Below are positions 12,828 through 61,926 of a stretch of DNA of 64,000 nt, piece after piece. The first letter of the stretch is position 1, and every line of letters starts with the position of its first letter. This DNA comes from Actinomycetota bacterium (GTDB lineage: Bacteria > Actinomycetota > JAHEXW01), in contig JANXYU010000035.1 in the NCBI GenBank assembly GCA_025355855.1, forward strand, positions 20,604-84,603. Reading direction: 5' to 3'. The notes beneath the pieces were generated by a model. The model was not told the origin of the DNA. It saw only the letters and a program-made list of their open reading frames with translations, and searched no databases. Both the position numbers and the translations under genes were made by a program.

Positions 12828-12828
12828 G

Positions 12829-35516: not shown

Positions 35517-35518
35517 TG

Positions 35519-35527
35519 TGGTATAAT
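35519..35527 (+). promoter_or_regulatory. Extended -10 element TGgTATAAT at the very 3' end of the giant gene, positioned to drive the downstream cytochrome gene
   Basis: TG at 35519-35520, TATAAT at 35522-35527; no obvious -35. Confidence 0.3.
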
Positions 35528-35563
35528 CGAAAAACACCAGTCAACAGCGATAATGAGGGAGAA

Positions 35564-39087: not shown

Positions 39088-39088
39088 C

Positions 39089-40138
39089 ATGATAAAAAGA
39101 CATGGCTTAGTTAGTCTGGCGTTATTTGTCCTCCTCGCGGCGGCTTCCGGCTGCGCGACCGCTAGCAAAGCGGCGACATTCAAGGCTCCGGCCAACACCT
39201 TAAGCGCAGTCAAGGTAACCGGCGCGTTTACGATTGACGGCAATTCCAGTGAACCGGCCTGGAGTAAAGCCACAGCGGTAATGATTCCGCTCAAGGCTGA
39301 AGCAGGCGTCGAGGCCAAAAAGGTCACACTGCGCGCCGTCTACGACGACAAAAACATATATGTGGCGGCGGCTTACGCCGACGCGACACCGCTTAAATTA
39401 GGCGAGGCGTGGACATTTGACGGCGCGGCCTGGAAGAAGGGCAGCTTTGACGACACGCTGGCTTTCGTTTGGAACATTAATGACTCCATTCCCGGCTTCA
39501 ATCAGCGGGGCATGGGTGTCATGACGAAACCGCTGACGAAGGGTATGGACGTTTTCGACTTCCAGCTGGCTGCCTCCGACAATAAGACAGCGGCCGCCAA
39601 AGCTGATTTTTGGGGCTGGTGCGGGATGCCGGAATTCTATGGCCGGGGCGACGACATGATATTTGCGCTTGATGAGCAAACCAAACTGGGCGGGCTAACA
39701 AAGACGCTAACGGTGCGGCATGACGCGCATACGAACAGCACGCCTTGGATTCGCAACGAAGCCACGGTCAACGGCTCGGCCGTTCCTAAGTATAAATATA
39801 AAGCGGGTTTCGACATCAACAACACGCCCCGGCCTTACGAGGATCAAGTGGAAGCTATCACCGACTACTCGACGTTCAAAGCCGGAGACCGAGCTCCATA
39901 TGTAGTAGGTATTAGGGGCGCCACCTGGGGCGGCAGTAAGGACGACATTAGAACAAAAGGCAGGCGTTCCGCGGGTGATTGGCAGGTTGAGTACGCGCGA
40001 GCGCTGGACACAGGACACGCCGACGATATCAAACTCGTACCCGGCGAGACGGTGACGTTCATCGTTGTTTTGCGCGATGACGCTAAGGGCTACGCGATCA
40101 GCGCTCCCGTTACGCTAAGACTCGGAGAAGGTGGGTAG
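39089..40138 (+). CDS. DOMON/CBM9/EB_dh-like lipoprotein, family member 2
   Basis: RBS GGGAGG; lipobox AASGC; motifs IDGNSSEPAWSKATAVMIPL, WNINDSIPGFNQRG, FWGWCGMPEFYGRGDDMIF, NNTPRPYED, WGGSKDD, LDTGHADDI. Confidence 0.7.
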   Translation: MIKRHGLVSLALFVLLAAASGCATASKAATFKAPANTLSAVKVTGAFTIDGNSSEPAWSKATAVMIPLKAEAGVEAKKVTLRAVYDDKNIYVAAAYADATPLKLGEAWTFDGAAWKKGSFDDTLAFVWNINDSIPGFNQRGMGVMTKPLTKGMDVFDFQLAASDNKTAAAKADFWGWCGMPEFYGRGDDMIFALDEQTKLGGLTKTLTVRHDAHTNSTPWIRNEATVNGSAVPKYKYKAGFDINNTPRPYEDQVEAITDYSTFKAGDRAPYVVGIRGATWGGSKDDIRTKGRRSAGDWQVEYARALDTGHADDIKLVPGETVTFIVVLRDDAKGYAISAPVTLRLGEGG

Positions 40139-40141
40139 GTC

Positions 40142-41206
40142 ATGAACAGACAATACAGGGCTTTTGCCAAAATTTCCGTAACGATTGTCCCCTTGATTCT
40201 TCTCCTGGGGGCCGTTACCGGCTGCGCTACATCAGGCAAGGCGGCGACCGTTAACAAATCTGCCGCACCTGTGCTACCGGCAGTCAAAACAATCGGCCGG
40301 ATTATCATTGACGGGAAGACGAACGAGGCAGCTTGGAACGATGCGCAAGCGCTGACTATTCCACTAAAAGCCGAGGCGGGCGTGGAGGCCAAAAAAGTTA
40401 CTCTGCGCGCTGTTTATGACAAAGAGAACATATATTTGGCGGCGGAATATGCCGACGCAACGCCTGTCAAGATGAATGAGGCCTGGGTTTATGACGGTAC
40501 GGCCTGGAAGAAAGGAAGCTACGACGACACCCTGGCGTTCGTCTGGAACATGGATAACTCAATCCCCGGTTTCAACGAACGCGGCCTAGGCGTGATGACC
40601 ACTCCGCTAGTCAACGGCAAGGATGTTTTTGATTTCCAGTTGGCCGCCGCCACCGACGCGACGGCCGATTCCAAGGCTGATTTCTGGGGTTGGTGAAGCA
40701 TCCCCGAACTCTACGGTCGTGGAGACGATATGATCTTTAAGCTCAATGAGGAAACCAAACTGGGAGGTCTGACCAAGACCCTCACGGTTCAGCACGACGC
40801 GCACATCAATGACCGGCCCTGGATCGCCAATACGACCAAGAGCAACAACGGGGACGGCCAGCCCATTTACCGCTTCAAGGACGGGTTGTCGTTTGCTAAT
40901 ACGCCTAACCCTTACCGGGGCGATGTTGTAGAGATAACGCCCGCCGATACGTTCAAAGCAGGCGACCGAGCCCCCTTTGCCATCGGTGTCCCGGGCGCCG
41001 TCTGGGGCGGCAGCAAGGACGACATCTTAACCAAAGGCATCAGCGCTAATGGTACGTGGACCGTCGAGTTCGCGCGGCGCTTAAATACCGGCAATCCCGA
41101 CGACATCAAACTTGTCCCCGGACAGGCAGCCACATTTGTCGTTGTCGTCCGCGATGACGCCAAGGGCTACGCTCTCAGCGCTCCGGTTACGCTTAATCTT
41201 GAATAA
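40142..41206 (+). pseudogene. DOMON-like lipoprotein family member 3, one reading frame interrupted by an in-frame TGA (40694-40696) where the adjacent paralog has Cys (TGC); pseudogene, sequencing error or selenocysteine
   Basis: ORFs 40142-40696 and 40730-41206 are in the same frame and colinear with 39089-40138 (FWGW*SIPELYGRGDDMIF versus FWGWCGMPEFYGRGDDMIF). Confidence 0.6.
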
Positions 41207-41238
41207 GGAAGGTAACGCGAACGGCGCGTAATTCACAT

Positions 41239-42294
41239 ATGCGGCAAATAATCACCACCAGCCGGCCGATTGCGGTCGCGCTCACGTCTATGATCCTCTT
41301 GCTCGGCCTAAGCGGCTGCAAAACCGGCGCGTCACCTGACTCAACGGCGGCAACAGCGCCTACGGTCAAAGCTGTCTTTACCAAGATCGCCCCGAGCGTT
41401 GACGGCAAGAGTGACGCTATCTGGAAAACCGCCCCGGAGACAAAGGTTAAGCTGCTGGAGACCAACGAAACAATCAACCTTAGGTTTCTGTACACGAATA
41501 CATCCATCTACGTCAAGGCGACATATCCGGACAGTACGCACGACTATATCGATCGGCCTTGGCGATTTGACGGCCAGAAATGGAAGCAAATAGGCCAGCA
41601 AGACTCCCTTTGTTTTATCTGGAATGTCAATGATTCGATTCGCGATTTCAACGCACGCGGCTTTGCTATCCTGACCCGCGGTTTGGAAGAGAACCGGCAT
41701 CCCTGGGATATCGAGATTGAAGGAGGCAAGCAGGCCGCCGTGCCTCCCTGGTTCAAAGCGCAAAAAGGGGACTTCTGGTCGACGGGGCTGCAATTGCCGT
41801 ACGGCAAGGCGGAAGACTGGGTCCTGAAGACGGGCAAAGCTCGCTGGTCGAACGGTGACTGGCATATCAAGCTGGTGAATCAGCACGACGCTTTTACCAA
41901 CCCCGCTCCATGGGTGCTGAACAAAGCAGCCGATTGGACACAGCCTATCTGGATACTCAAGCCGGGCCTAACGCTGCAATCCGACCCTTACCCGGTAAGC
42001 GCCGACATGGTCGAGATCGGCGACCACGTGCCGGTGGCCGGTGAGATGCAGCCGTTCATCGTCTATCGAACTCGACAAGCCCGTTGGGGCGGCAGCAAGG
42101 ACGACATTGACGGAGCGGAGGCCTGGCGCTCCGGCGTCTGGACGGTCGAGATGGGGCGGTTGTTGAATACGGGGCATAGCGACGATATTTATTTTCAACC
42201 TAAAAGCGGCCGGACGTACACTTTCGGCCTTCTGGTTCGGCGGACGGGCAGCCGCTACCAGCCGACGGATCCGGTGAAGCTTGTTTTTAACTAA
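41239..42294 (+). CDS. DOMON/CBM9/EB_dh-like lipoprotein, family member 4
   Basis: Lipobox LSGC; motifs SVDGKSDAIWKTAPE, WNVNDSIRDFNARG, WGGSKDDI, LNTGHSDDIYF. Confidence 0.7.
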   Translation: MRQIITTSRPIAVALTSMILLLGLSGCKTGASPDSTAATAPTVKAVFTKIAPSVDGKSDAIWKTAPETKVKLLETNETINLRFLYTNTSIYVKATYPDSTHDYIDRPWRFDGQKWKQIGQQDSLCFIWNVNDSIRDFNARGFAILTRGLEENRHPWDIEIEGGKQAAVPPWFKAQKGDFWSTGLQLPYGKAEDWVLKTGKARWSNGDWHIKLVNQHDAFTNPAPWVLNKAADWTQPIWILKPGLTLQSDPYPVSADMVEIGDHVPVAGEMQPFIVYRTRQARWGGSKDDIDGAEAWRSGVWTVEMGRLLNTGHSDDIYFQPKSGRTYTFGLLVRRTGSRYQPTDPVKLVFN

Positions 42295-44722
42295 AGCGCA
42301 ATCAGACGGGAATCAGCAAAATATTAACCCAGGCCCGACCTCGGCCAGGCCTAACGCGGATAGAAGAGTAGGCTACGTAGGGCTATTCTTTCTTTCTCTA
42401 GCTCTATTGATGATTGAGATCGTTTACTCGCGTACCGCACGCGTGTCTTTTGGCTATGAGTATCAGCTGTTGGTGATTTCTCTGGCCATCTCCGGCCTAG
42501 GTCTCGGCGGAATCCCCGTTTACTATCTTTTCAAACGTGTCAATCAGAGCTTTAACCGCTGGTTGAGCCCGCTGGCTTTGGTTTTTACCGCGTCTCTGCC
42601 TCTGCCATTTCTTACTGTAAATAGTCTAGGCGTTGAATACGCGGCCAAAAACGTGGGTAACGAGCTTACCTATTTCGGTGTTTCGACGGCCACAATGACG
42701 CAATTCTCATTGGCGGTTTTCGCTGTGTATTTTGTGGCCGGCGTGCTGATTGCAGCTTTCCTTAGCCACTATAGTGAGCGCGTGTCGTCGGTCTACGCCG
42801 TGAACTTGGTCGGTTCGGCTGTCGGCGCGTTGGCGGTGATACCGTTGATGAACCTGTTCGGTATGGAAACGACGATTGTAATAATCTATGCCGTGGCTGC
42901 CGCCGCCGCTTTATTGTTTGTCTCGCGGGCCGGTTTGAAGCCGGTGCTCATGGCGGCTTTAATCATAGTTGTTCTGCTTAGCATAGGTTTGCTGGCTCGC
43001 ACTGCGCCGGCCTTGCGCGCCGGCGGCAGGGACAGCAAGGCTGTTATATCGGCTTCTAATTCTTTCTCGCAGATCGATGTGTTTCGGGTCGACCCGACCA
43101 GCCTGGCGAAGGGTCTAAGCGCCTCGTTTGGTGAGGCTATTAAACCGAGCGTGCACGCCTACAGCTTGGTGTACGACCGGAAACTTAAAACTAACGCCAT
43201 CGTCTACACAAATCTGGCCGATGTTAAGTATCTAACCTATGATCTTTTCTATTTCCCGTACTATTTGAAGCCTCGTTCCGACGTTTTGATCATCGGTGCG
43301 GGCGGCGGTGTTGATGTGGCGCGGGCCAGCCTGGCGGACAGCCGAACGATTGACGCCGTGGAGGTCAATCCGCTGATGATTGATATCGCTCGCAACCGGC
43401 TGAGGACCAAGGCGTTCGACGCCCCCAACGTCCGCTTGCATGTGGGCGAGGCCAGAAATTTTGTCACCGGCTCGAAAAGACCATATGATCTCATCTTCTT
43501 ATCCAACACCGGCGGATTCGGCGGCCGCAGTGTCAACTCGAATTACTACCCTGACAATTACCTTCATACCAAGGAAGCCTACGTTACTTATCTGAAACAT
43601 CTTAGACAGAACGGTATCCTAGCTGTCAGTAACAAAGATATGGTTGTGCGCGAGTTTGTCGGAGTCGGTATAGCCGCATTGGGTCAGCAGGGGATCGCGG
43701 CCGCGCATCACGTCGCGCTGCTGGCGGGTCACGGCTATTCTGTCGTCCTTTTCAAGCCGGCAGGTTTTTCGCGCCAAGAGGAACGTCTGATCGCCAAAAA
43801 GGCGGCGCGTCTAAACTTCAGCGCTGAATTTCCCGCGTCTTTGCCCGCTGACGCTATCATGGGAGCAAGCCTAACTGACGATAAGCCTTTCTTGTCTGAT
43901 AGGACTTCGCTTCTCCAGATACTATCTTCTCCCCCCACTAAGTCAGAAGCGATGGCGCCTGCGACACTCCCGGGAGCGGTAGCTTTGCCGACGACGAACG
44001 CGGGAGGGACGGGTGAGGCGGATGGATATCTGGCAATTCGTTTTCTGGCGTGGCTGGGCGGCCTCGGTTTAGCCGTTGTGCTTTTATTGCTGGCGGCGCC
44101 GCCTCTGTCTTCCGGGATTCGGGGAACGCGGCAGTCGCTTAACGTTTTGCTCTCACTTGGGTACTTTGTCGCCTTGGGTCTCGGCTTTATCGTCTTCCAG
44201 ATGGTCATGTTGCAGCGAGCTTTCCTGTTTATCGGTAATCCATCGTACTCCATGGTTCTTGTCCTCGCTTCATTCTTGTTATTTGGAGGTTTGGGAAGCC
44301 TAGCCACGGCCAAGATTAAGCCCGAACGATTCCGGTTCGCGATTGGCATCGCCGGCGGAGCATCCGCAGCCTGCCTGCTGGTTTACTCATATTCGCTGAA
44401 TCGGCTGTTCGTCGATCTGATCTATCTCAGCCCGGCCGTTCGCGCTCCTTTGCTTGTCTTGCTGCTCGCCGTCCCTTGTTGGCTGGCCGGTCTCATGTTT
44501 CCAATCGGCCTAAAGCTAACAAACTCCCTAACCGAGCAGCTAATACCGTTGATGTGGAGCATTAACGGGGTCGCAATCGTTTTGGGCGGCGCCACCGCGG
44601 CTTTGCTCGCATTCTTCTACGGATTTAGGATTACCCTGGGCGCAGGCGCAGGCTTCTATCTCGCCGCGGTTTTCCTGTTTATCGGCGTCAAAACTAAGAG
44701 CTTGCGGTCATTTACAGAATGA
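42281..44722 (+). CDS. Polytopic membrane protein with an embedded spermidine-synthase-like (aminopropyl/methyltransferase-fold) domain; start uncertain (track start is a TTG inside the previous gene)
   Basis: ~7 N-terminal TM helices; Rossmann motif VLIIGAGGGVDVARASLADSRTIDAVEVNP and YDLIFLSN resembling spermidine synthase; more TM helices at the C-terminus. Confidence 0.65.
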   Translation: MFLTKAQSDGNQQNINPGPTSARPNADRRVGYVGLFFLSLALLMIEIVYSRTARVSFGYEYQLLVISLAISGLGLGGIPVYYLFKRVNQSFNRWLSPLALVFTASLPLPFLTVNSLGVEYAAKNVGNELTYFGVSTATMTQFSLAVFAVYFVAGVLIAAFLSHYSERVSSVYAVNLVGSAVGALAVIPLMNLFGMETTIVIIYAVAAAAALLFVSRAGLKPVLMAALIIVVLLSIGLLARTAPALRAGGRDSKAVISASNSFSQIDVFRVDPTSLAKGLSASFGEAIKPSVHAYSLVYDRKLKTNAIVYTNLADVKYLTYDLFYFPYYLKPRSDVLIIGAGGGVDVARASLADSRTIDAVEVNPLMIDIARNRLRTKAFDAPNVRLHVGEARNFVTGSKRPYDLIFLSNTGGFGGRSVNSNYYPDNYLHTKEAYVTYLKHLRQNGILAVSNKDMVVREFVGVGIAALGQQGIAAAHHVALLAGHGYSVVLFKPAGFSRQEERLIAKKAARLNFSAEFPASLPADAIMGASLTDDKPFLSDRTSLLQILSSPPTKSEAMAPATLPGAVALPTTNAGGTGEADGYLAIRFLAWLGGLGLAVVLLLLAAPPLSSGIRGTRQSLNVLLSLGYFVALGLGFIVFQMVMLQRAFLFIGNPSYSMVLVLASFLLFGGLGSLATAKIKPERFRFAIGIAGGASAACLLVYSYSLNRLFVDLIYLSPAVRAPLLVLLLAVPCWLAGLMFPIGLKLTNSLTEQLIPLMWSINGVAIVLGGATAALLAFFYGFRITLGAGAGFYLAAVFLFIGVKTKSLRSFTE

Positions 44723-44895
44723 CCCGGGTTTGATAGAATATGTCCAGAATTACGGCAAGTGTTGACTTGCTTGACCTGCAACAACAGCTCTCAAGTACTA
44801 AGTGTACACAACGGTTCTGCCGATACTAGTAATAGGTCTTCTACCCGCGCTAAGACTGGGGTCCGGCGACTAGGCTAAAGGACGCGCAGCTTGGA

Positions 44896-45963
44896 ATGGG
44901 GCAGAAGATGGCAGGAGAGAGGCTTTTGACGCAAACTGAATGCATCAAATCCGTCGGCGACGGCCTGGGACGGACGATTTTCGCTTATACGGCATTTGTC
45001 TTGACCATGACATTAGTCATGGTCATGCTGTTGTCTTCTCCTGTTTTCGCGGCCGATGACAGCCCTCACGGCCACTTTACCTCCAATACCGATAAATGCA
45101 AATCCTGTCACCGGGTGCACAGCGGCAGCACGGCCAGCTTGCTTCCTGAACAATCCATAACGCAGACTTGCGTTTCTTGCCATTCCAACGGTTCGGGCGC
45201 CGACACCGGTGTTATGCAAGGCGCCTATTTCGACGCCGGGCATCCGGGGCACTCCTGGGGAGTCAACGGCGGCACTTTGGTCGGAGGCGGTTTTGCTCTG
45301 GTAGGCAATAGCGCCGCTGTGACCGGCAGTCATCAATTGGACGCGGCCGGGAAGCCGTACGGCACGACAACTGGTGTTTCTTATGTACTGACATGTGTTA
45401 GTTGCCATACCCCGCACGAGGGCCCTAACTATCGTTTGCTCCGGCGTAATGTCGCCGATTCCCCGACTGACATCCGCGTTACCAGCAACGAACTCGACAA
45501 AAACTACTGTGTGACCGATTACGGCGCGGCGCCGGGTATTCAGGAATACACTCGGAATTATAAAAGCGGGATTGCGGCGTGGTGCACGGCCTGCCACGCC
45601 AAGTACATGACGCGCGGCGGCGTTTTTGGGGCCGATGTTTATAACGCCGGCGACATGTACGGTTCAGTCACGCGATACCGCCATGCCATCGACGTGCCGA
45701 TAACCGGACGCGCTGATGCCGCCAACGGTATCGCCTACAATCTGACGACAAATCTGCCGCTGCAGGATCTGACCGGCGACGGACGGACAGCCGACGACAC
45801 GATAACCTGTTTGACGTGCCATCAAGCGCACGGCGGCGCAGCGATAATGCACGGAGCGGCGATTCTGACATCCGGCCAGCGCGGCGCCTTACCGAGTAGC
45901 GGCGATAGTACGTTACTAAGGCAGGACGATCGGAATGTCTGCCGCGACTGCCATAATCTGTGA
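44896..45963 (+). CDS. Secreted hexaheme OmcS-like cytochrome paralog 3
   Basis: Signal peptide; 6 CXXCH (CKSCHRVHSG, CVSCHSNGSGADTG, CVSCHTPHEGPNYRLLRR, WCTACHAKYMTRGG, RYRH, CLTCHQAHGG, CRDCH). Confidence 0.8.
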   Translation: MGQKMAGERLLTQTECIKSVGDGLGRTIFAYTAFVLTMTLVMVMLLSSPVFAADDSPHGHFTSNTDKCKSCHRVHSGSTASLLPEQSITQTCVSCHSNGSGADTGVMQGAYFDAGHPGHSWGVNGGTLVGGGFALVGNSAAVTGSHQLDAAGKPYGTTTGVSYVLTCVSCHTPHEGPNYRLLRRNVADSPTDIRVTSNELDKNYCVTDYGAAPGIQEYTRNYKSGIAAWCTACHAKYMTRGGVFGADVYNAGDMYGSVTRYRHAIDVPITGRADAANGIAYNLTTNLPLQDLTGDGRTADDTITCLTCHQAHGGAAIMHGAAILTSGQRGALPSSGDSTLLRQDDRNVCRDCHNL

Positions 45964-45986
45964 TTGAGAAGTGAGAGGAGAGGGAA

Positions 45987-47099
45987 ATGAACGTGCTTAG
46001 AAGATTATCACGATTTACACATTTTTCTGGAAAGGTGGTGAAACCAATGAAAACCAAATTGCTAGGAACGACTGTCATTACGTTGGTCGTGTTCCTGTGC
46101 TTGAGCGGCTCAGCTTGGGCGGCATATCCGCACGGCTTGTTCGGCGCGACGCCGGACGCTTGCGCGGCTTGCCATCGCATGCACACGGCGACCAGCAACA
46201 ACTTGATCGCCGACCCGAACGGTTCATCGATGTGCGATTCTTGCCATCGGGGCGGTACGGGAGCCGATACGGACGTCGGGACAGGCACCTACGTAACCAA
46301 CGGAGAGCCCGGCCATGCCTGGGGCGCGAATGGCGGTACACTGCTCGGCGGTGGTTTTGTGACTGTTAACGGGGCAACGGCGACATCGATGCACGTCATG
46401 AATACAGCTTTGACGCCGCCCGGGTCGACGACTGGCGCGACGATTAAGTTGCGCTGTATTGACTGTCACAGCCCGCACCCGGACAAGAGCTATCCGAACC
46501 AGTACCGGTTGCTGAGGCTGAATCCGAACAACGTAGCTGCGGCTCGACCGGTCGCGTGGAACGGTCCTTGGACCGACGCCACTCAGACGGCCTATCAGTC
46601 AGACGGCTATCGCGGTTATACGGAAACGGACTTTGTCTCCGGAACAGCCGGAACACAGTATTATACCCACAACTATAAAACGGGTATCGAGAATTGGTGC
46701 ATCGCGTGCCACAGCAAATACATGACGCGCGGCGGCCAATTCGGTACTGACGTGTACAACACGGGAGACAAGTACGATAGCGACCCCGCGGCTGTTAACG
46801 GACGTTTCCGCCACGGCGTCGGCGTGCCTCTGAAGAGCGGGAATCCGGATCAAGCGAACCAGATCACCTATGACCTGACAACCGATCTGCCCTTGGAGGA
46901 CGTAAACGGCAGCATGACGCGTGACTATACGACCGATCTGTTGACATGTACGTCGTGTCACCGGTCGCATGGCACGAACGCGACGATGTCCGGCGAAGCG
47001 GTACTTGAAAATCGCGGCACCGTTTTACCGGCCGGAGTGGACAGCATGCTCTTGCGTCAGAACGACCGTGTCATGTGCGTTAACTGTCACAACATGTAA
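45987..47099 (+). CDS. Secreted hexaheme OmcS-like cytochrome paralog 4 (strong RBS GAGGAGAGGG; alternative ATG at 46047)
   Basis: 6 CXXCH (CAACHRMHTA, CDSCH, CIDCHSPHPDKSYPNQYRLLR, WCIACHSKYMTRGG, RFRH, CTSCHRSHGTN, CVNCH). Confidence 0.8.
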   Translation: MNVLRRLSRFTHFSGKVVKPMKTKLLGTTVITLVVFLCLSGSAWAAYPHGLFGATPDACAACHRMHTATSNNLIADPNGSSMCDSCHRGGTGADTDVGTGTYVTNGEPGHAWGANGGTLLGGGFVTVNGATATSMHVMNTALTPPGSTTGATIKLRCIDCHSPHPDKSYPNQYRLLRLNPNNVAAARPVAWNGPWTDATQTAYQSDGYRGYTETDFVSGTAGTQYYTHNYKTGIENWCIACHSKYMTRGGQFGTDVYNTGDKYDSDPAAVNGRFRHGVGVPLKSGNPDQANQITYDLTTDLPLEDVNGSMTRDYTTDLLTCTSCHRSHGTNATMSGEAVLENRGTVLPAGVDSMLLRQNDRVMCVNCHNM

Positions 47100-47174
47100 A
47101 AAGTACCTAATTGAAGGAGAAGAACCGCTTTCTTGACGGATAGCCTAGAGATCCAAGAGCAAAGCGAGAGAATC

Positions 47175-48227
47175 ATGAAGAACAGAGTGTGGGTATCAGG
47201 GATGATCTTAATAGCGATGTACCTGGCCTTGGGCGGCAACGCCCTGGCCGGGTATCCGCACGCGTCATTTAGCGGTCACCCTGATGCCTGCGCTTCTTGT
47301 CACCGCGTTCACACGGCCACGGCCGGTAACTTGATCAAGGATCCAGCCGGTACGTCCTTATGCTACTCCTGTCATTGGGGCGGATTGGGTGCGGATACGG
47401 ATGTAAAGAACGGTCAGTATGTCAGCACAGGAGAGACGGATCACAGCTGGGGCGATCCTAATATGCCTCTGCTGGGCGGCGGTTTCGCTCAAGTCAAAAG
47501 CACATCGACCACAACCAGCCATCACATCATGGATACAGCCATAACCCCGCCGGGCGTCAATGATTATCAAGACCCGGGTGCGGTAATCACCTTGAAATGT
47601 ATGTCTTGTCACAGCGCGCATCCCGACAAGGGCTACCCAAATCAATACCGCTTGTTGCGCGTTTGGCCGAATGGTGTTGCCAAAAACGACCCGCGCGAGG
47701 TTAAGTGGAACGGGCCGTGGGATGACGCGACGCAAACGACCAAGAATAACCCGGCTCGTGAATATCGGGCTTACTCCGATAAGGACTGGAATCCCGACCT
47801 GCCGGGCACGCAAATCTACACAATGAACTACGGCGAAGGCATGAGTCAGTGGTGCGTAAGCTGCCACACGAAGTATTTGACCCCCAAGGATAGCTCGCCT
47901 TACGACGCCGGCGACGCCTACGGCGCTTTGGTACGCTACCGGCATCACGCGGACACCAAGATTACCAATCTGACCGATACGAACAGCGGTCTGGCCTATA
48001 ACCTCCACACCGATCTGCCTTTGGCGCACGTCGATGACCCCGGGATCCCGGCGGCCGACCGGAGCAAAATGAACTGCGTTACTTGTCACCGCTCGCACGG
48101 AACCGACGCGGTCATGGTGGGCGAGGCGATTCTGAGCCCGACCACGCGGGTCAGCCTGCCGACCGACAGCACCTTGCTGAGGCGGGACAACCGCGGGGTC
48201 TGCGGCAACTGCCACACCAACATCTAG
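47175..48227 (+). CDS. Secreted hexaheme OmcS-like cytochrome paralog 5 (track start TTG 47133; ATG 47175 gives a clean signal peptide)
   Basis: 6 CXXCH; motifs MSQWCVSCHTKY, NCVTCHRSHGTDA and C-terminal CGNCH match OmcS (MSEWCANCH; NCLSCHRAHASG) as recalled. Confidence 0.8.
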   Translation: MKNRVWVSGMILIAMYLALGGNALAGYPHASFSGHPDACASCHRVHTATAGNLIKDPAGTSLCYSCHWGGLGADTDVKNGQYVSTGETDHSWGDPNMPLLGGGFAQVKSTSTTTSHHIMDTAITPPGVNDYQDPGAVITLKCMSCHSAHPDKGYPNQYRLLRVWPNGVAKNDPREVKWNGPWDDATQTTKNNPAREYRAYSDKDWNPDLPGTQIYTMNYGEGMSQWCVSCHTKYLTPKDSSPYDAGDAYGALVRYRHHADTKITNLTDTNSGLAYNLHTDLPLAHVDDPGIPAADRSKMNCVTCHRSHGTDAVMVGEAILSPTTRVSLPTDSTLLRRDNRGVCGNCHTNI

Positions 48228-48509
48228 TCCGTGCCTCAACGCCTTTTGGCCGCTGACCTTAGCCTGGGTTATAATTAACCTAGACAAGCGTGCGAGAAAG
48301 GTTATCCGATAATAGCTATAAACAACACCAGTAAGATTGTAGTCATTGCGACCTTATTACTATTCCTTAGCGGCTGCGGCTATGCCAACCGACCGGCCAA
48401 TAACCCTTCGTCGCCGACAGCCCGTGTCCTTGAAGCCGAGTTCGGGCCTGCTCCGGTCGTCGATGGTCGGGCCGGTGACCCGGTCTGGTCTTCCGCCCGG
48501 TCTCTCACC

Positions 48510-49385
48510 GTGACCACCGCAGGCGGACCGGCGGTAACGCTTAAATCAGCAATTTCGGGAGAATACATATACATGTTGCTCACATGGGCCGATTCGACGA
48601 ACGATAACGTGGATGAAGTGTGGCGATATGACGGCGCGACCTGGACGCAGGGCCCGATTGACGACGCCGTTGCCGTGTTCTGGAATATCGACGAGTCAAT
48701 CAACGGTTTCGACAGGAGCGGCTGCCGGGTCCTATGTCACGCGGTTAACGGCCAACCAGCGATGAGCCTGGTGGGGCCGGTAACGCCCACGGGGAAATGG
48801 AGCGGCGTCAAACAGCGAGGCGATATCTGGGATATGTCGTTGGGCATCAGCAATGTCAGAGGGGTAGGGAACGACTATTTCTTCGGCATCGACGAGGCCT
48901 ACGTTAAGAATCCGACGACCATCACGCCGGTGATCCGGCGCCGGCACGACGCCTATACCGCCCGGGCTCCCTTCGAGCTCAACAAGCGCGTCGATCCGGC
49001 CACCGGTAAAAACGTGCCGCGCTATCGTTTGCGCGCCGGCTTGACGACGACCACGACCCCTTACCCCCAGATCGACCAGGTTGAATTAATCACAGGTGAC
49101 ATGTCTTTCGCCGCCGGGGATACTATACCGTATGTCGTTTTCTATCCGCTTGACACACCGTGGGGCGGCAGTCGCGATGACTTGGTAGCTAAGGGCGTCT
49201 GGCTGGACGGACAGTGGACGGTTGAGTTCAAGCGTAAACTAGACACGGGTCACCCAGCGGACGATATAAAGTTCGTTAAAAAGGCGGGACAGACAAGCTA
49301 TTATGTATTTGACGTCGCGCTGTTTAACAGGACGATCAGCCAACATACCTATTCGGGACCAATTAGTCTGGAGATCAAACAATGA
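48510..49385 (+). CDS. DOMON-like family member 5 carrying a CX3CH heme-c-type motif (GCRVLCH); true start probably upstream (~48309-48336) at a non-ATG codon, giving a lipoprotein signal ...LLLFLSGC
   Basis: Family motifs VVDGRAGDPVWSSA, WNIDESINGFDRSGCRVLCHAVNG, WGGSRDDL, LDTGHPADDIKF; the in-frame upstream extension encodes KIVVIATLLLFLSGCGYAN. Confidence 0.65.
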   Translation: MTTAGGPAVTLKSAISGEYIYMLLTWADSTNDNVDEVWRYDGATWTQGPIDDAVAVFWNIDESINGFDRSGCRVLCHAVNGQPAMSLVGPVTPTGKWSGVKQRGDIWDMSLGISNVRGVGNDYFFGIDEAYVKNPTTITPVIRRRHDAYTARAPFELNKRVDPATGKNVPRYRLRAGLTTTTTPYPQIDQVELITGDMSFAAGDTIPYVVFYPLDTPWGGSRDDLVAKGVWLDGQWTVEFKRKLDTGHPADDIKFVKKAGQTSYYVFDVALFNRTISQHTYSGPISLEIKQ

Positions 49386-49401
49386 AGGCCGAATACCAAT
49401 A

Positions 49402-50556
49402 GTGAGACCCAAATACCTAAGTAGCATCGCGCTCAGTTTAATGTTAATCGCAGCGCTCGCCTCGACGGGTTGCGCGACGAAAACAGGCGCCGTTAAGGCG
49501 CCTACCAAGCTAACGGTAAAAGCGGTCAAGGTTGATACATCGCCCAAGCTGGACGGTCAGGGCAGTGATGCCGTATGGCGCCAAGCCAAGCCGGCCACTA
49601 TCCACACGAAGAATGGCGCGGATCTAGTCCTAAGAACCGTTTACACGGCGGACAGCATCTACTTTCTGGCGACATGGAAAGACTGGACTCCGCAAAAAGG
49701 CTTGCTGTATTGGGAGTATGACGGGCAAAAGTGGCATTCGAATCTAAACGAAGACGACAAAATCTCATTTATCTGGAATATCGACCGTTCCATCGACGGT
49801 TTCGACAAGACCGGCTGCGCGGCCATCTGCCACAAGGGACCGGAAGGTCGCGACGAGATGGCTGTCTTTGGACCGCCCAAACAAAGCGGGAAAGTCTGGC
49901 CCGGATATAAAGAAAAAGCAGACGCCTGGAAATGGGCGCCCGGTGTGATGAGTGAGAAGCACGTTGTTGACGATGGGCTGTTTAGTGCGGGCCGCGAAGC
50001 CTTAGCGCGCCCGGAGATGCAAACAAGATTTAAGTTGTCCCTTTTATTTGACGGGGGCGACCAGGGAACAAAACAATGGTGGACACGCAACCCGAACGCA
50101 GCCGGCGGGATGCACGGTGATGAGGAAGAAGAGAACGAGACGCCGGGCAGTTTTAAACCGACGTATATGCCCAAGCCGGGCTATGATCTAAGCAAGCACC
50201 CTTTCCCGAACGCTCGCGATATGGTGCCGATCACGGACTACTCGATCTTCAAAGCGGGCGACAAGGTGCCGTTGGTAATGTACTTCGATCTGACAACCGC
50301 GAAGAATAAGATAGACTTTCCCGCTGGGCGGCCCTCCGGCAGCCGGGTCGATCTATCCGGGCAAGCGGTTTATAAGGACGGGCATTATACTCTCGAGTTC
50401 GGGCGTAAGCTTGATACCAAGCACAACGACGACGTCCAGTTCCGGCCGCAGAGCGGTCGGGCGGTGGCTGAGAATGTCTTTGGGGTGGCGCTCTTTAACG
50501 ACACCCGCTACGGTCATACCACCAGCGATCCCGTGACCTTAACCCTAGAACCGTAG
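49402..50556 (+). CDS. DOMON-like lipoprotein family member 6 with a CX3CH motif (GCAAICH); the ORF-track start 49303 overlaps the previous gene and is unlikely
   Basis: GTG 49402 yields MRPKYLSSIALSLMLIAALASTGC (lipobox); motifs KLDGQGSDAVWRQAKPATI, WNIDRSIDGFDKTGCAAICHKGPEG, LDTKHNDDVQF. Confidence 0.65.
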   Translation: MRPKYLSSIALSLMLIAALASTGCATKTGAVKAPTKLTVKAVKVDTSPKLDGQGSDAVWRQAKPATIHTKNGADLVLRTVYTADSIYFLATWKDWTPQKGLLYWEYDGQKWHSNLNEDDKISFIWNIDRSIDGFDKTGCAAICHKGPEGRDEMAVFGPPKQSGKVWPGYKEKADAWKWAPGVMSEKHVVDDGLFSAGREALARPEMQTRFKLSLLFDGGDQGTKQWWTRNPNAAGGMHGDEEEENETPGSFKPTYMPKPGYDLSKHPFPNARDMVPITDYSIFKAGDKVPLVMYFDLTTAKNKIDFPAGRPSGSRVDLSGQAVYKDGHYTLEFGRKLDTKHNDDVQFRPQSGRAVAENVFGVALFNDTRYGHTTSDPVTLTLEP

Positions 50557-50557
50557 C

Positions 50558-51880
50558 ATGAAGAATACCATTTTGCTCTATTCGCCTCCGCCGGTTCTGG
50601 AGAAGCCCTCGACCCGGGCGCCTCTGGCCTTGCTGGCCATCGCCGGTCCGCTGACCGTCGCCGGCTATCGCGTGATAATTTTGCCTCGCGATCCGGCCGC
50701 CCATTCCGCCGTTTTCCAGGCCTTAGCCGGGGACATTCTATGTTATGGCCTGTCGGTCATGACGGGGCCGCAGATCAATATAGCGTTGGCCTCGACGCGA
50801 GCGTTTAAGGAGTGCTGCAGCGCGCCGGTCGTCTGGGGCGGTTGGCATCCGACAATATTCCCCGAACAAGTCGCCCGGCAGGCGGAGATTGATTTTGCCG
50901 TCGCCGGACGGGGTGAGGACGCATTCCTCGCGCTGGCAAAATGCTTGTCAGGAAAGATGTCTTACCGGGGCATTGAGGGTCTGGTTTTCGCGGCAGACGG
51001 TCGCCTGATTAATAACGGTATAGCGCGCGGTAAGGACATCAATGGGTATCCGCCGCTTGACTATGGTCTTCTGGAAATGGACAACTATATATTTGCCGAC
51101 GATATTGCGGCGCGCACCATCAATTATGTATCAAGCCGGGGCTGTCCGAAGAACTGCCCATCCTGCGCCCAGAGCCTGGTTAGCGGCGGAACTTGGCGAG
51201 CCTATACGCCGGCGCGCCTGGTGAATGAGGCTATCCGCCTGCGCGACAACTTTGGCATAGGTGGGATACTTTTTGACGACGCCAATTTCTTTGTCGACGG
51301 CGACCGGGCGCGCGATTTCGCTGCGGGATTGATTAACCGGCAGGCCGCTTTACATTGGGGGATGCCGACAGCGCGCCTGGAGGACGCTGTTGGCTTCAGC
51401 GATTTGTTTTGGGACCTGCTGCGTAATAGTGGTCTGCAAAGCGTTTTTGTCGGCCTCGAGCCGCGTTGCGGCGCTATCAGCCGAAGCCAGACAGACGTTT
51501 ATGGTGAGTTTCGTCCCGCGGTCGATGGTCTAGCCGGCACCTTAAACCGCCACGGCATCGCTCTAAAGCTGTCCATTCTGGTTGGATTTCCTCCGAGCGG
51601 CGTTTATAAGTGGACCTTTGAGGACGAACTGACTGCGGCTACACAGTTAATTGACTCCGCTATAACCGCCGGCGCCTCGGTCAGTCCATCGATATCCCTT
51701 TACCTGCCTTTTCCTCACGCGCCCTTGTACGATCTGGCCCTGAAGAGCGGCCTCAGGCCGCCGACTACCCTGGACGGATGGGGCAGTTGGGATCCCGGTT
51801 CCCAAGATATGCCCTGGGTTCCAACGGGAGCCAAAGAGAAGATAGGCAACCTCAATAACGTCTACTCGAGGACCTCCTGA
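50558..51880 (+). CDS. B12-binding-domain radical SAM enzyme (class B)
   Basis: N-terminal B12-binding-like Rossmann region; radical SAM cluster motif CPKNCPSC (CX3CX2C). Confidence 0.75.
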   Translation: MKNTILLYSPPPVLEKPSTRAPLALLAIAGPLTVAGYRVIILPRDPAAHSAVFQALAGDILCYGLSVMTGPQINIALASTRAFKECCSAPVVWGGWHPTIFPEQVARQAEIDFAVAGRGEDAFLALAKCLSGKMSYRGIEGLVFAADGRLINNGIARGKDINGYPPLDYGLLEMDNYIFADDIAARTINYVSSRGCPKNCPSCAQSLVSGGTWRAYTPARLVNEAIRLRDNFGIGGILFDDANFFVDGDRARDFAAGLINRQAALHWGMPTARLEDAVGFSDLFWDLLRNSGLQSVFVGLEPRCGAISRSQTDVYGEFRPAVDGLAGTLNRHGIALKLSILVGFPPSGVYKWTFEDELTAATQLIDSAITAGASVSPSISLYLPFPHAPLYDLALKSGLRPPTTLDGWGSWDPGSQDMPWVPTGAKEKIGNLNNVYSRTS

Positions 51881-53340
51881 TGACCGTGGACACCCGGACG
51901 GCGCGTCTACTTGATCCGCTGACTCGATTCATGCGTTGGCTTGAGGACCTGCCGATCTCTCTGCCTGGGGTACTTGCTTTCTATATTGTGATTGCGTTTA
52001 TCAGATCATATTTCGAAACGACGCTTTTACATCCCGGAATCTTCCTGGTAATTTGGTTCTTTTGGAACGCGTATTTCTGTTTCTGTTTCATCAGCGCCTC
52101 GTATATCGCCAGCATCGCCGCTCAGCGCCCGTCCCTCAAGACATTGCGGGCCTCGATGGCAATCGTCTGGCTCGTCATCATACCGCCGCTTTTTGACTAC
52201 TACCTTGTCGGCCGGCGTTTGCCCTATGACTACCTCTTTAGCCAGCAAATATTTAAGGCAGTCGTCGAATTCTTCACTGCGGGAACTGTCAGTGTCGGGA
52301 TGCGTCTGGAAGTCAGTTTGTATGTATTAGCCGTCACCGTCTACGTCGGTCTAATGGCGCGCTCATGGACGAGGGCGATAATATCGGGAATCATCTTCTT
52401 TTTTGTCGGCATAGTCTTGGTCGCTCAATATCCGGGACTGTGGGTGCCGCTCGCCAACTACGCCGCGCCGATGCTCCCCGACCGGCCTTATCAGCCGAGC
52501 TTTCTGTTGCTTTTATACCTGGTCTTAGCTATCGCGTTTTTAGCGATCGTTATGAGACGGCAGGATAAGGATTGGGCCGCCCGTATTGTCCGCGCAGTGA
52601 CGGCTCCCCCGTTGGGAATGGTTCTGCTAGCTTGTCTGACTGGTTTGGTCTTCGCTCGACAGACAATCATCCTGGCGCTCACTGGTCCCGTATATGCGGC
52701 TCTTAGCCTGATTACCGTCACTTTTTGTCTGGCCGCTGTGCGGTGGGCCGGGGTCGGTGACGGGCGCGGCAAGCCGTTGGTGCTTTGGGATTGGGCGGCG
52801 CTGGCCGCTGTCTTGGCTTTAGCGTTAGGTTATCTGATCAGCGGCATTTATGGCGTCATAGTTGTCGCCGTTTGGTTGTTCGTGGCTGCTGCGGCGAAGA
52901 TTCTAACTAGCGGTAAGCCGGCCGGCATTTACGGGCAAGCCGCGCTGACGTCGATATGGGTCTTATTGGCCTTTCTGTTCGGCGCCGTCGCGACTCGATA
53001 TCAACTTTTGCCGGAGCACTTATTTGAAATCGGGCGAGCGGCGGCTGTCGTCGCGATCGTCGCTGTCGGAGTTTGTCTCGGGCCGGCGCTAGTGGATGCC
53101 GGAAAAACAAAAAGACGGAGGCAAGAGGCCGGCCTGCTGGTCTGGTTTACGTTTCTCAGCCCGTTGTTCTTCAGCCAAGCGAAGCCGGTCCTATTCTTTA
53201 CCATCGGCGGCGCCAGTCTGGCCGCGCTTACGATTTGGCACGGGCGTTGGCCGCGGCTCGTTCAACCGCTCGGGTTAATGGTGGCGTTGGTGGCTTTTAT
53301 ATTCGGCTCCGGCCTGTTGGCGACCCCTATTGTGCTTTAG
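51880..53340 (+). CDS. Polytopic integral membrane protein (>=12 TM helices), function unknown
   Basis: Uniformly hydrophobic helices; 1-nt overlap with the upstream gene. Confidence 0.55.
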   Translation: MTVDTRTARLLDPLTRFMRWLEDLPISLPGVLAFYIVIAFIRSYFETTLLHPGIFLVIWFFWNAYFCFCFISASYIASIAAQRPSLKTLRASMAIVWLVIIPPLFDYYLVGRRLPYDYLFSQQIFKAVVEFFTAGTVSVGMRLEVSLYVLAVTVYVGLMARSWTRAIISGIIFFFVGIVLVAQYPGLWVPLANYAAPMLPDRPYQPSFLLLLYLVLAIAFLAIVMRRQDKDWAARIVRAVTAPPLGMVLLACLTGLVFARQTIILALTGPVYAALSLITVTFCLAAVRWAGVGDGRGKPLVLWDWAALAAVLALALGYLISGIYGVIVVAVWLFVAAAAKILTSGKPAGIYGQAALTSIWVLLAFLFGAVATRYQLLPEHLFEIGRAAAVVAIVAVGVCLGPALVDAGKTKRRRQEAGLLVWFTFLSPLFFSQAKPVLFFTIGGASLAALTIWHGRWPRLVQPLGLMVALVAFIFGSGLLATPIVL

Positions 53341-53414
53341 CGTCGATCTGTTTACGGCCCTGACGTGTGATAAAATAATATATATAGTTTTCCAAGGAGA
53401 TAACCGAACAAAAC

Positions 53415-54269
53415 ATGACATCTTCAACACAAGAACGGCGCTATGCTGTCGCCCTCGTCCGGTCCGTCCGGTGGCCGGAAACCATTCATTTCTTGATCAT
53501 GGGCGGCGCGGGCCTTCTGCTGGCGGGCCGCGTTATCGGTCAAGGTTGGGCTGTTATCCCTATTTCGTTGATCACGTTCTTTATCGTGGCTTGCCTATAT
53601 ATGTTCGCTTCGTTGGTGAATGATGCCAATGACGTCCCGGTAGACATTGTCTCTAATCCGGACCGTCCGATTGTCGTCGGTTTAATGACGCCGGCCGACG
53701 CGATGCGGGCCGCCTGGTTTTTCGCCGCCGCGGCTCTGATATTGGGGTTCTTTATCGCGTCCGAGGTGCGCTGGCTAGTCGCTCTGGGCTTGGTGTTGGC
53801 CTGGGTGTACTCGGCCCCGCCGATCCGGCTTCGACGGTATGTTTTGAGCTCACTCGTAATTGGCGGAGGATCCATGTTGGCTTTCCTAATCGGATATATG
53901 ACGATGGATTTCAGCCACAGCTGGGGTCTGCCGGTGTCAATCAAACTAGTCGCGTTGGTGATTCTCGTAGCCTTCTCCGCCGGCCAGATGATTCGCGACC
54001 TGAAGGACTACGCGGGCGACAAGGCAGCGCGTATCACGACTTTGTTCACAATCTTTGGAAGGGAGCGCGGCAAACAGATAATGACAGGTTTGTTGGTGTT
54101 TTGCTTTCTGGTTCCATTAGTAATCCTGCACGGCTGGCCCGACGCGCTTGTTTACCTGACAGTCGGGGCCGCTTCGGTTTACTTCTTCCAGTTCAAGGAG
54201 GCTGTTGACCGCGTCATTCTGTTGTCTTCCGTGGTCTCCCTTTACACAGTAGTAAGGCTGTTGACCTGA
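53415..54269 (+). CDS. UbiA-family aromatic/isoprenoid prenyltransferase
   Basis: NDANDVPVDIVSNPDRP (UbiA NDxxDxxxD motif); ~8 TM helices; second Asp-rich region around DLKDYAGD. Confidence 0.8.
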   Translation: MTSSTQERRYAVALVRSVRWPETIHFLIMGGAGLLLAGRVIGQGWAVIPISLITFFIVACLYMFASLVNDANDVPVDIVSNPDRPIVVGLMTPADAMRAAWFFAAAALILGFFIASEVRWLVALGLVLAWVYSAPPIRLRRYVLSSLVIGGGSMLAFLIGYMTMDFSHSWGLPVSIKLVALVILVAFSAGQMIRDLKDYAGDKAARITTLFTIFGRERGKQIMTGLLVFCFLVPLVILHGWPDALVYLTVGAASVYFFQFKEAVDRVILLSSVVSLYTVVRLLT

Positions 54270-54270
54270 C

Positions 54271-56837: not shown

Positions 56838-56839
56838 GG

Positions 56840-58419: not shown

Positions 58420-58543
58420 GCGTGCGACTCCTTTAGACCCTTGCGTGTTGCGCCACCATTGGCAACATTATACGTCACGGGCGCTTTCGGTCTACGTTCA
58501 GTGTGCTTGGCGATGAACCGTTTGACCTGATAGAATTAAATCT

Positions 58544-61923: not shown

Positions 61924-61926
61924 CGC

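Follow-up and report, generated by a model that had tools for sequence, protein, structure and literature searches.

The second of two cytochrome arrays in a 64,000-nucleotide stretch of an Actinomycetota MAG (the window) consists of three colinear genes, P1-P3, each encoding a protein with exactly six CxxCH heme-binding motifs. They follow a membrane-protein gene and a promoter-like sequence:

42281-44722, + strand: polytopic membrane protein of 813 aa whose central domain is spermine/spermidine-synthase-like (SpS-like), directly 5′ of the trio
44711-44739, + strand: sigma-70-like promoter match, TTTACA-17-TAGAAT with TG, from a consensus scan of the 174-bp gap 5′ of P1
44896-45963, + strand: P1 (type 1), 355-aa ORF; hexaheme protein of the CwcA/OmcS superfamily, mature 303 aa
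45987-47099, + strand: P2 (type 2), 370-aa ORF; hexaheme protein, mature 325 aa
47133-48227, + strand: P3 (type 3), 364-aa ORF with a TTG start; hexaheme protein, mature 325 aa

The ORFs agree in position and heme count with the three colinear 355-370-aa hexaheme genes described by the initial annotation, and CxxxCH and CxxxxCH variants are absent from all three proteins. Each carries a predicted signal peptide, with cleavage at ..SSPVFA|ADDSPHG in P1, ..GSAWA|AYPHG in P2 and ..GNALA|GYPHA in P3; these signal peptides and the mature lengths are by-eye readings of AxA-type sites, made without a signal-peptide predictor. Inspection of the three sequences revealed no LPXTG motif or lipobox. Translation of P2 may begin instead at M21 (46047), as in homolog P0002, and Shine-Dalgarno-like sequences lie 5′ of both candidate starts; P3 has an alternative ATG at 47175. 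The promoter match, from a scan that found 4 sites against 2.3 expected from shuffled sequences, could possibly drive the trio. No terminator-like site was found 3′ of P3, the single match lying inside P2 and below shuffle expectation, and Rfam models scanned across the entire window gave no riboswitch or other RNA match 5′ of the genes.

A first array, of two hexaheme paralogs, lies upstream in the window, directly 5′ of a giant ORF:

11724-12827, + strand: hexaheme paralog, type-1-like
12820-13950, + strand: hexaheme paralog, of a separate clade
13983-35516, + strand: giant Big/DUF2341/Laminin_G surface protein, 7177 aa
31455-35516, + strand: C-terminal heme region of the giant protein (aa 5825-7177), with 10 CxxCH and 1 CxxxCH

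Five stand-alone hexaheme copies are thereby found within 36.5 kb, as had been claimed for a span of 37 kb. The "giant mosaic copy" counted alongside them proved fragmentary on comparison with the hexaheme profile. The parts of the giant ORF that match are colinear but scattered: aa 5825-5872 correspond to hemes 1-2 (E 4.5e-14) and aa 7093-7144 to heme 5 (E 2e-4), the match to heme 3 falls short of significance, and five additional heme motifs are interspersed. We read this region as a split or partial hexaheme module, and not as a clean sixth copy. The arrangement of a hexaheme pair followed by a giant ORF recurs at another locus (L005). Variable regions of different length had also been proposed for the second array; the length difference stands, the loop between hemes 3 and 4 of P1 being ~17 residues shorter and devoid of the WNGPW segment, but the peptide quoted as its example, TTATDANGVSTTTTDNKYTEVDY, comes from the first-array gene at 11724-12827.

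Trio members share 39-47% identity with each other and 36-45% with the two first-array paralogs; across all five proteins, pairwise identity spans 36-47%, with 67 invariant alignment columns, and the paralog types form separate old clades in a tree. A related MAG, nzgw113, carries orthologs of P1, P2 and P3 in the same order at a locus (L001) that is 78% identical to that of the window. The respective proteins are 85%, 79% and 89% identical, with dN/dS of 0.074, 0.104 and 0.052 and dS > 1. The conserved order and the low dN/dS (0.05-0.10), which marks purifying selection, show that the trio are real genes. The type 1-2-3 order also occurs at L008 and L009 and, approximately, at L010, where the triplet lies directly 3′ of a TPR-NHL gene pair; it is thus present in at least three, and probably four, other actinobacterial contigs, and this recurrence implies that the paralogs are old and non-redundant. 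Apparent losses of heme motifs in two homologs trace to a CxxxCH variant (L005_g1) and a truncated C-terminus (L010_g2).

These comparisons bear on whether the array is simply redundant, made up of recent duplicates, assembly artefacts or decaying copies, as similar-length genes in tandem on a metagenome-derived contig might suggest. Pairwise identities of 36-47% exclude recent duplication or assembly artefact; near-identical copies, the outcome that the initial annotation had set against its own view of diversified paralogs, were not found. Each copy moreover has its own ortholog in the second MAG, belongs to a separate old clade and retains every heme motif and distal histidine. The redundancy reading is refuted by the trio identities, the nzgw113 orthologs and the clade separation, and we assign it next to no probability; diversification without recent duplication is borne out.

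We then asked which characterized proteins the trio resembles. BLASTP against CwcA of Thermincola aligned P1, P2 and P3 with E values of 3e-24, 8e-23 and 2e-21, over ~340 of 353 residues at 25-28% identity, and an HMM of the trio family matched CwcA at E 2e-46 across profile positions 9-351. The CwcA sequence (Tfer_0075) was reached via ImdcA and then the Thermincola locus, and its identity was confirmed by locus position and by a published primer that encodes EEPYY as the mature N-terminus. CwcA of Thermincola ferriacetica/potens (Tfer_0075/TherJR_1122; Bacillota, as against the Actinomycetota of the window) likewise has six CxxCH motifs in a mature protein of ~330 aa, with the same six distal histidines and a histidine near the mature N-terminus. 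By sequence, therefore, the closest characterized relative of the trio is CwcA rather than OmcS, which places the three proteins in the CwcA branch of a CwcA/OmcS superfamily. They are additional members of a known, widespread family: at least 621 clusters (50% identity) score at E<=1e-30, and given this size, the trio extends known biology and overturns none.

The initial label, OmcS-like, holds in one respect and needs qualification in another: profile homology and a shared histidine pattern support it, but the relationship is remote and CwcA is nearer. A single-sequence phmmer search of the PDB with P2 returned no cytochrome, only spurious matches (E~0.4); a profile of the 89-sequence family returned OmcS of Geobacter sulfurreducens (GSU2504; 6ef8/6nef) as the top match at E 3.3e-8, with hemes 1-5 colinear in one stretch and heme 6 in a weak second stretch. 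Aligning the trio and OmcS families by hhalign gave 99.6% probability (E 6e-24); the 216 aligned columns extend as far as heme 4 and include the signal peptides, whereas against the single OmcS sequence only 32 columns aligned. We conclude that the OmcS relationship, as judged from these profiles, is real but remote. Weaker PDB matches of the family profile, to the putative multiheme filament 9YUQ (E 8e-4) and OmcE (7TFS; E 0.012), share with MtrA (6R2Q chain A) and the trio a doubled CxxCH...CxxCH unit (PF09699), for which P1 itself matches Pfam Paired_CXXCH_1 at E 1.6e-17; unlike OmcS, these proteins do not align colinearly over six hemes and differ in heme number and size, the MtrA match being confined to repeated short motifs.

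Structural comparison was less informative. The AF2 monomer model of P2 reached pLDDT 75 and pTM 0.74, with residues 41-80 (His49, heme motif 1 and His66) at a low pLDDT of 45-58, a hint of head-to-tail polymerization. Foldseek with the heme-free model found no OmcS-like fold, which is weak evidence for so coil-rich a structure; a control AF2 model of OmcS, itself poor (pLDDT 50), still matched 6ef8, so the negative outcome reflects more than tool failure.

The heme ligands offered a finer comparison. Exactly six non-motif histidines are conserved in 98-100% of the 89 family members, and those of P2 (H49, H66, H136, H164, H276 and H328) correspond to OmcS H2, H16, H110, H147, H257 and H335 in the same order and spacing, across six heme motifs that are colinear in both proteins; a histidine at +3 follows heme motifs 1, 3 and 5 in the trio family and in OmcS alike. 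This correspondence is one of residue conservation, bis-His ligation being predicted. It also speaks to whether the trio could be catalytic, as subunits of a nitrite, hydroxylamine, sulfite or metal reductase, instead of pure conduits. OcwA, a Thermincola surface cytochrome, has a reductase-like fold, and folds of this type in related surface cytochromes, together with weak Pfam and NCBIfam matches to NrfB, NrfH and Cytochrom_C552-type models, would favor an enzyme. Those matches, however, fall below curated cut-offs and cover the CxxCH motifs only, OmcS, the nearest relative among solved structures, is a wire protein without catalytic function, and the family displays no conserved CxxCK motif, Lys or Tyr ligand, open-site signature or extra catalytic domain that we could find. 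With a conserved distal histidine for every heme motif, we reject the catalytic reading as very improbable. The initial annotation also offered different acceptors, redox potentials or glycosylation states as possible roles. Glycosylation is unsupported: the trio proteins have 1-3 N-x-S/T sequons each and a T+S+N+G content of 32-37%, equal to that of OmcS and CwcA.

Genes upstream of the first array complete the setting:

215-1093 and 1115-1963, + strand: two 10-heme NapC/NirT-type proteins (Pfam Cytochrom_NNT)
2052-2573 and 2580-4091: non-cytochrome ORFs, the latter Lnt
4156-5235, + strand: 12-heme protein, homolog of Thermincola ImdcA and PdcA
8242-9762, + strand: 506-aa cytochrome with 14 CxxCH and 1 CxxxxCH in repeated paired-CXXCH units, homolog of Tfer_0072
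9801-10565, + strand: TPR protein (Pfam), preceding the first array
10562-11563, + strand: NHL-repeat beta-propeller protein (Pfam), preceding the first array

The two 10-heme proteins and the 12-heme protein, the membrane-proximal cytochromes of the window, matched ImdcA by BLASTP at E 7e-36, 2e-31 and 2e-17, respectively, and PdcA at E 1e-21 to 1e-24. The 506-aa cytochrome matched Pfam Paired_CXXCH_1 at E 7e-63 and Tfer_0072, a 17-heme protein, at E 3e-56; the NHL protein matched its Thermincola counterpart at E 1e-16 and a 315-aa Geobacter protein at E 4e-10. A TPR-NHL pair also precedes cwcA in Thermincola (L011) and recurs in this context at L006, L007 and L010; Geobacter has an NHL-like gene beside omcS. 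ImdcA-like, Tfer_0072-like, TPR, NHL and hexaheme genes are arranged as in Thermincola, up to and including the first array; the trio lies 31 kb further downstream, within the same gene island. The two systems differ in copy number, with one cwcA at the Thermincola locus and five paralogs in two arrays here, including the 1-2-3 triplet, and in the surroundings of the trio, with the SpS-like gene ahead of it and EB_dh-domain lipoproteins on its flanks, neither of which was seen within 10 kb in Thermincola.

The SpS-like neighbor has a match in Geobacter. Its 813-aa product matches Pfam Spermine_synth (E 5e-5) and a Geobacter locus protein (BLASTP E 7e-11, 24% identity over 339 aa), which suggests that it corresponds to the Spermine_synth protein of 1017 aa encoded between omcT and oscC. 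Among the loci compared, only L001 has this gene, 83% identical and with dN/dS of 0.074. The osc operon, with the OmcS paralogs OmcT and OscC (as described second-hand in PMC13194489), and the window each encode several paralogs, an NHL-type protein and a Spermine_synth-like polytopic membrane protein; the YNCE-type propeller of Geobacter had no convincing match in the window.

Taken together, these data make it likely that the trio proteins are Sec-exported, six-heme, bis-His cytochromes of the CwcA branch that serve as a wall-crossing or extracellular wire component of Gram-positive-type extracellular electron transfer, probably carrying respiratory electrons outward through the cell wall. 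Electrons would leave menaquinol through membrane multihemes of the ImdcA-like NapC/NirT type (215-1963), continue via the PdcA- and Tfer_0072-like multihemes (4156-5235 and 8242-9762), enter the CwcA-like hexahemes (11724-13950 and the trio), and end on the giant surface cytochrome or on an acceptor outside the cell, for instance Fe/Mn oxides, humics or partner cells. CwcA, a hexaheme OmcS homolog for which insertion into the cell wall has been proposed, has been modelled as a polymer in which heme 5 is ligated by a histidine of the next subunit (PMC7911101). By analogy with that model and with the solved OmcS filament, the trio proteins may polymerize by head-to-tail stacking, in which the invariant histidine three residues after heme motif 1 (P2 His66, the counterpart of OmcS His16) would complete the ligation of heme 5 in the adjacent subunit; types 1, 2 and 3 would have non-redundant roles, for example different positions in the conduit or different potentials. 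The CwcA host is monoderm, and the window organism is presumed to be so from the Actinomycetes/Actinomycetota labels of its relatives; no outer-membrane secretion step would therefore be expected, unlike for OmcS.

A rather unlikely alternative, though the most serious one, is that the trio proteins are CwcA/OmcS-related carriers that do not polymerize, acting as monomers or loose associates in the wall zone between the membrane multihemes and the giant surface cytochrome, each type tuned to its partners or potentials. Six conserved distal histidines are enough for six hemes in one monomer, the mature proteins lack some 80 residues relative to the length of OmcS, the Foldseek comparison returned no OmcS-like fold, and the window encodes many other multihemes that could make a discontinuous relay; polymerization of CwcA is itself only a homology model (PMC7911101). 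Against such carriers stands the exact retention of the OmcS histidine pattern, including the His16 equivalent and the histidine near the mature N-terminus, as well as the presence in the window of TPR and NHL genes and an omcS-type SpS-like gene. CwcA, for its part, could not be kept soluble on expression, which is consistent with self-association (PMC7911101). We therefore favor a wire component over monomeric carriers. More elaborate, and quite improbable, is a heteromeric envelope wire with types 1-2-3 not as alternatives but as obligate co-subunits, which would be nucleated or anchored on the C-terminal split CwcA-like module of the giant protein (5,000-7,000 aa) and assembled via the polytopic SpS-like protein; being common to Geobacter osc, that protein would predate the diderm/monoderm split of these lineages.

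To our knowledge, the cytochrome nanowires with solved structures come only from a small number of diderm bacteria and from archaea, and what is understood of electron passage through a thick Gram-positive wall derives mostly from Thermincola CwcA, which has not been purified. The window indicates that uncultured groundwater Actinomycetota share the Thermincola pathway layout, with its CwcA/OmcS-type component expanded to five old paralogs, three of which are kept as an ordered triplet and provide concrete candidates for testing heteromeric wires. It also bears on how universal the individual elements of OmcS assembly (NHL, TPR and SpS-like proteins) are, and on a possible contribution of Actinomycetota to the cycling of iron and manganese in the subsurface.

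An OmcS homolog has previously been reported, as a single gene and outside any analysis of paralog arrays or synteny, in the genome of the anode-enriched Coriobacteriales S27 (Arbour et al. 2020, PMC7399161). By description it resembles the trio, being an actinobacterial hexaheme protein with all six CxxCH motifs and 28% identity to OmcS, encoded in a multiheme-rich genome.

Three colinear hexaheme genes occupy precisely 44896-48227, as the initial annotation had placed them, and with the first-array pair (A1/A2) they make up the five stand-alone paralogs it counted:

44896-45963, + strand, P1 hexaheme ORF, 355 aa, six CxxCH
45987-47099, + strand, P2 hexaheme ORF, 370 aa, six CxxCH
47133-48227, + strand, P3 hexaheme ORF, 364 aa, six CxxCH
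11724-12827, first-array ORF, hexaheme by motif count
12820-13950, first-array ORF, hexaheme by motif count
13983-35516, giant surface protein, 7177 aa, 10 CxxCH and one CxxxCH, all in the last ~1350 residues
42281-44722, SpS-like polytopic membrane protein, 813 aa, with a spermine-synthase-like domain, directly upstream of the trio

P1, P2 and P3 carry exactly six CxxCH motifs each, with zero variant motifs. The MAG 'Actinomycetes bacterium nzgw113' (L001) matches the window in gene order (SpS-like, P1, P2, P3, two EB_dh genes), and its orthologs of P1, P2 and P3 are 85, 79 and 89% identical, with dS >1 for all three and dN/dS of 0.074, 0.104 and 0.052, respectively. Judged by these sequence features P1–P3 are real genes, and the reverse-strand ORFs overlapping them are shadows. 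Each protein has an N-terminal hydrophobic signal sequence with an AxA-type site, the mature N-terminus falling 3-5 residues ahead of a conserved His, and all three are firmly predicted to be exported. A promoter-like site lies within the 174-bp gap 5′ of P1; a terminator scan gave no convincing site 3′ of P3, and an Rfam scan of the whole window returned zero elements.

The paralogs had been described as diversified rather than recently duplicated, and our checks agreed: pairwise identity across the five is 36-47%, with 67 invariant alignment columns, which rules out recent duplication or an assembly artefact, and a neighbour-joining tree assigns the five copies to distinct old clades, all of which also include sequences of other genomes. 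Redundancy or artefact is thus excluded as an explanation of the array. Variable regions do differ in length, notably the heme 3–heme 4 loop, and P1 lacks the WNGPW-containing segment; the example peptide ascribed to paralog 1 of this array actually comes from the first-array gene 11724-12827. There is no evidence for P1–P3 glycosylation, with 1-3 sequons per protein and a T+S+N+G content (32-37%) equal to that of OmcS and CwcA.

Hexaheme genes on related contigs were assigned to types by comparison with the window's five copies. The type 1-type 2-type 3 order is also present in L001, L008 and L009, and approximately in L010, where the third gene scores near-equally as type 2 or type 3. In L008, L009 and L010 the triplet immediately precedes a giant Big-domain protein (in L010 also directly after TPR-NHL), and in L005 an A1/A2-type pair stands ahead of such a giant, like the window's first array. 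This recurrence points to a conserved unit, placed behind the SpS-like gene in the window lineage, and three diverged types kept in a conserved order, with strong purifying selection acting on them, speak for roles of P1–P3 that are not redundant.

Above threshold, Pfam and NCBIfam recognised P1–P3 only as a generic doubled-CXXCH domain. A database search found 114 homologs, of which nearly all are metagenomic proteins without a name; those with one come from MAGs of Actinomycetota and Chloroflexi. Across 89 aligned sequences the 12 heme Cys and six motif His show little or no variation, and exactly six further His (P2 H49, H66, H136, H164, H276 and H328) are 98-100% conserved, implying one distal ligand per heme; P1–P3 accordingly have six c-type heme sites each, all with a conserved distal His. 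Searched against a representative set of 1.84 billion proteins, the family profile matched 621 at E<=1e-30 and 2104 at E<=1e-10. An OmcS homolog was known earlier from an anode-enriched actinobacterial genome (PMC7399161), and the literature regards OmcS homologs as widespread. Given this, the trio are further members of a known family, to which the window adds an expansion to five paralogs, a triplet of conserved order, a partial module fused in the giant, and shared SpS-like/NHL/TPR companions.

By sequence comparison, the nearest characterised relative of the trio is CwcA (Tfer_0075), a hexaheme of Gram-positive Thermincola ferriacetica with proposed cell-wall insertion (PMC7911101). We reached its locus (L011) via the published ImdcA sequence; there ImdcA, a second NapC/NirT cytochrome, the 17-heme Tfer_0072, TPR and NHL genes precede a 353-aa hexaheme, identified as CwcA by a mature N-terminus, EEPYY, that agrees with the paper's cloning primer. 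P1, P2 and P3 align with it end to end (BLASTP E 3e-24, 8e-23 and 2e-21), as do the two first-array proteins (E 5e-18 and 2e-14), and the family HMM matches it over profile positions 9-351 (E 2e-46), with the same His pattern. The window reproduces the Thermincola layout (ImdcA/PdcA-like, Tfer_0072-like, TPR, NHL, first hexaheme pair): two 10-heme NapC/NirT proteins and one 12-heme protein are ImdcA/PdcA homologs (E 7e-36 to 2e-17), a Tfer_0072 homolog is present (E 3e-56), the NHL proteins match at E 1e-16, and a TPR gene is also there. P1–P3 lie within a Thermincola-like extracellular electron transfer (EET) gene island.

A single-sequence search of PDB with P2 gave no match. With the family profile, the Geobacter nanowire hexaheme OmcS (6ef8/6nef) was the top PDB match (E 3.3e-8), hemes 1-5 falling in one colinear alignment and heme 6 in a weak second stretch, followed by MtrA, 9yuq and OmcE through short motif matches only. 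Against an OmcS family alignment, built by searching with OmcS itself as query, hhalign gave 99.6% probability (E 6e-24, 216 columns). These comparisons establish homology of P1–P3 to CwcA and, remotely, to OmcS. The conserved His of the OmcS family (H2, H16, H110, H147, H257 and H335, mature numbering) follow the same layout as in the window family: one near the mature N-terminus, one at +3 after motifs 1, 3 and 5, and one in each of the intervals from motif 2 to 3 and from motif 4 to 5. P2 His66 is thus the positional equivalent of OmcS His16, which ligates heme 5 of the neighbouring filament subunit (restated in PMC7911101).

Electrons would pass from menaquinol through the ImdcA-/PdcA-like multihemes to the hexahemes, and onward to minerals or the giant surface cytochrome; the hexahemes would stack head to tail, His66 of each subunit completing heme 5 in its neighbour. 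CwcA, which shares 18% identity with OmcS and resisted attempts to keep it soluble, was modelled as an OmcS-like polymer spanning peptidoglycan, the next subunit's His possibly completing heme 5 (PMC7911101). The main rival to stacking is a non-polymerising relay protein. A catalytic role is unlikely, and the 89-sequence alignment held no sign of an open catalytic site signature.

The Geobacter omcS locus (L003) encodes, in order, a 315-aa protein, omcS, omcT, a 1017-aa Spermine_synth protein, a 437-aa OmcS-like protein (oscC; osc naming from PMC13194489) and a YNCE-type propeller; the NHL protein GSU2505 adjoins omcS (PMC9070056). The SpS-like protein matches the 1017-aa protein (L003 12833-15886) over 339 residues (BLASTP E 7e-11), and the window NHL protein matches the 315-aa protein (E 4e-10). 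Taken with the Thermincola matches, this makes three types of companion that reappear with hexahemes of the OmcS/CwcA type, the phyla being Desulfuromonadota, Bacillota and Actinomycetota. Of these links, the one to the SpS-like gene is the weakest: among the actinobacterial and related loci compared, the gene occurs only in the window and L001, and the literature examined gave no function for such a polytopic protein.

The giant had been read as a mosaic copy of the hexaheme, which stands for module fragments and fails for a complete module. The hexaheme profile matches it in colinear pieces only (hemes 1-2, E 4.5e-14; heme-5 region, E 2e-4); no other piece reaches significance, and five additional hemes lie scattered among them. 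It combines Big_13, Big_5, DUF2341, Laminin_G_3, Gly_rich_2 and fn3 domains with a C-terminal block of 11 heme motifs, and is at best a split module joined to a surface protein of the Big/DUF2341/Laminin_G/fn3 type. Giant counterparts of 5,000-6,500 aa directly follow hexaheme genes in L005, L008 and L009, and the next gene in the window, an 821-aa five-heme protein (35513-37978), is 56% identical to its L005 counterpart.

Eight EB_dh (PF09459) ORFs lie within 37975-42294, ~48300-50556 and 58544-59608, most with lipoprotein-type signals (..SGC/..TGC); five such genes likewise flank the L005 hexaheme pair. Three (48510-49385, 49303-50556 and 58544-59608) contain G-C-x-x-x-C-H where three others (37975-39087, 39089-40138 and 41239-42294) have G-[FM]-x-x-[ML]-T, which suggests two subclasses, one with covalent (c-type, CX3CH) heme and one with non-covalent heme. 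In one case the EB_dh domain is divided between two adjacent ORFs, for its N-terminal half (40142-40696, 184 aa) and its C-terminal half (40730-41206, 158 aa); the identical split in L001 (750-1304 and 1338-1814) rules out a single-assembly sequencing error. A promoter-like TTGGCC-18-TATAAT follows P3 at 48246-48275. The EB_dh gene after P3 has its own signal peptide without a canonical start codon (48300-48510): in-frame upstream sequence encodes the lipoprotein signal IIAINNTSKIVVIATLLLFLSGC, and only ATA/ATT codons are usable after a GAAAGG Shine-Dalgarno-like motif. The nzgw113 ortholog is in the same situation (L001 ~8880-8940), and a non-canonical ATA/ATT start is likely.

Further downstream, cluster 50558-62892 holds three B12-binding radical SAM genes (50558-51880, 54271-55662 and 60187-61923), a UbiA prenyltransferase (53415-54269), two peptidase-U32-like genes (55662-57814) and a polyprenyl synthetase (61927-62892), and resembles a cluster for making or modifying quinones or isoprenoid lipids, appended to the EET island. 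A polyprenyl synthetase also lies directly upstream of imdcA in Thermincola (L011 8826-9797). Interleaved with the multihemes are Lnt (apolipoprotein N-acyltransferase, 2580-4091), a Rex-like redox-sensing regulator (5260-5892) and GAF-HD(-GYP) (6612-8027); L010 (189-3523) keeps the order Lnt, 12-heme, Rex, 14-heme, TPR, NHL, hexahemes. Chloroflexi family members (L006, L007) are about 28-30% identical, some copies with seven CxxCH, and sit in a different but related cluster of Ni_hydr_CYTB with a NapC/NirT cytochrome, TPR, an NHL-like protein of 404-416 aa without Pfam call, hexa-/heptahemes, a small ORF of 114-120 aa and a large cytochrome fused to CBM or peptidase S8 domains.
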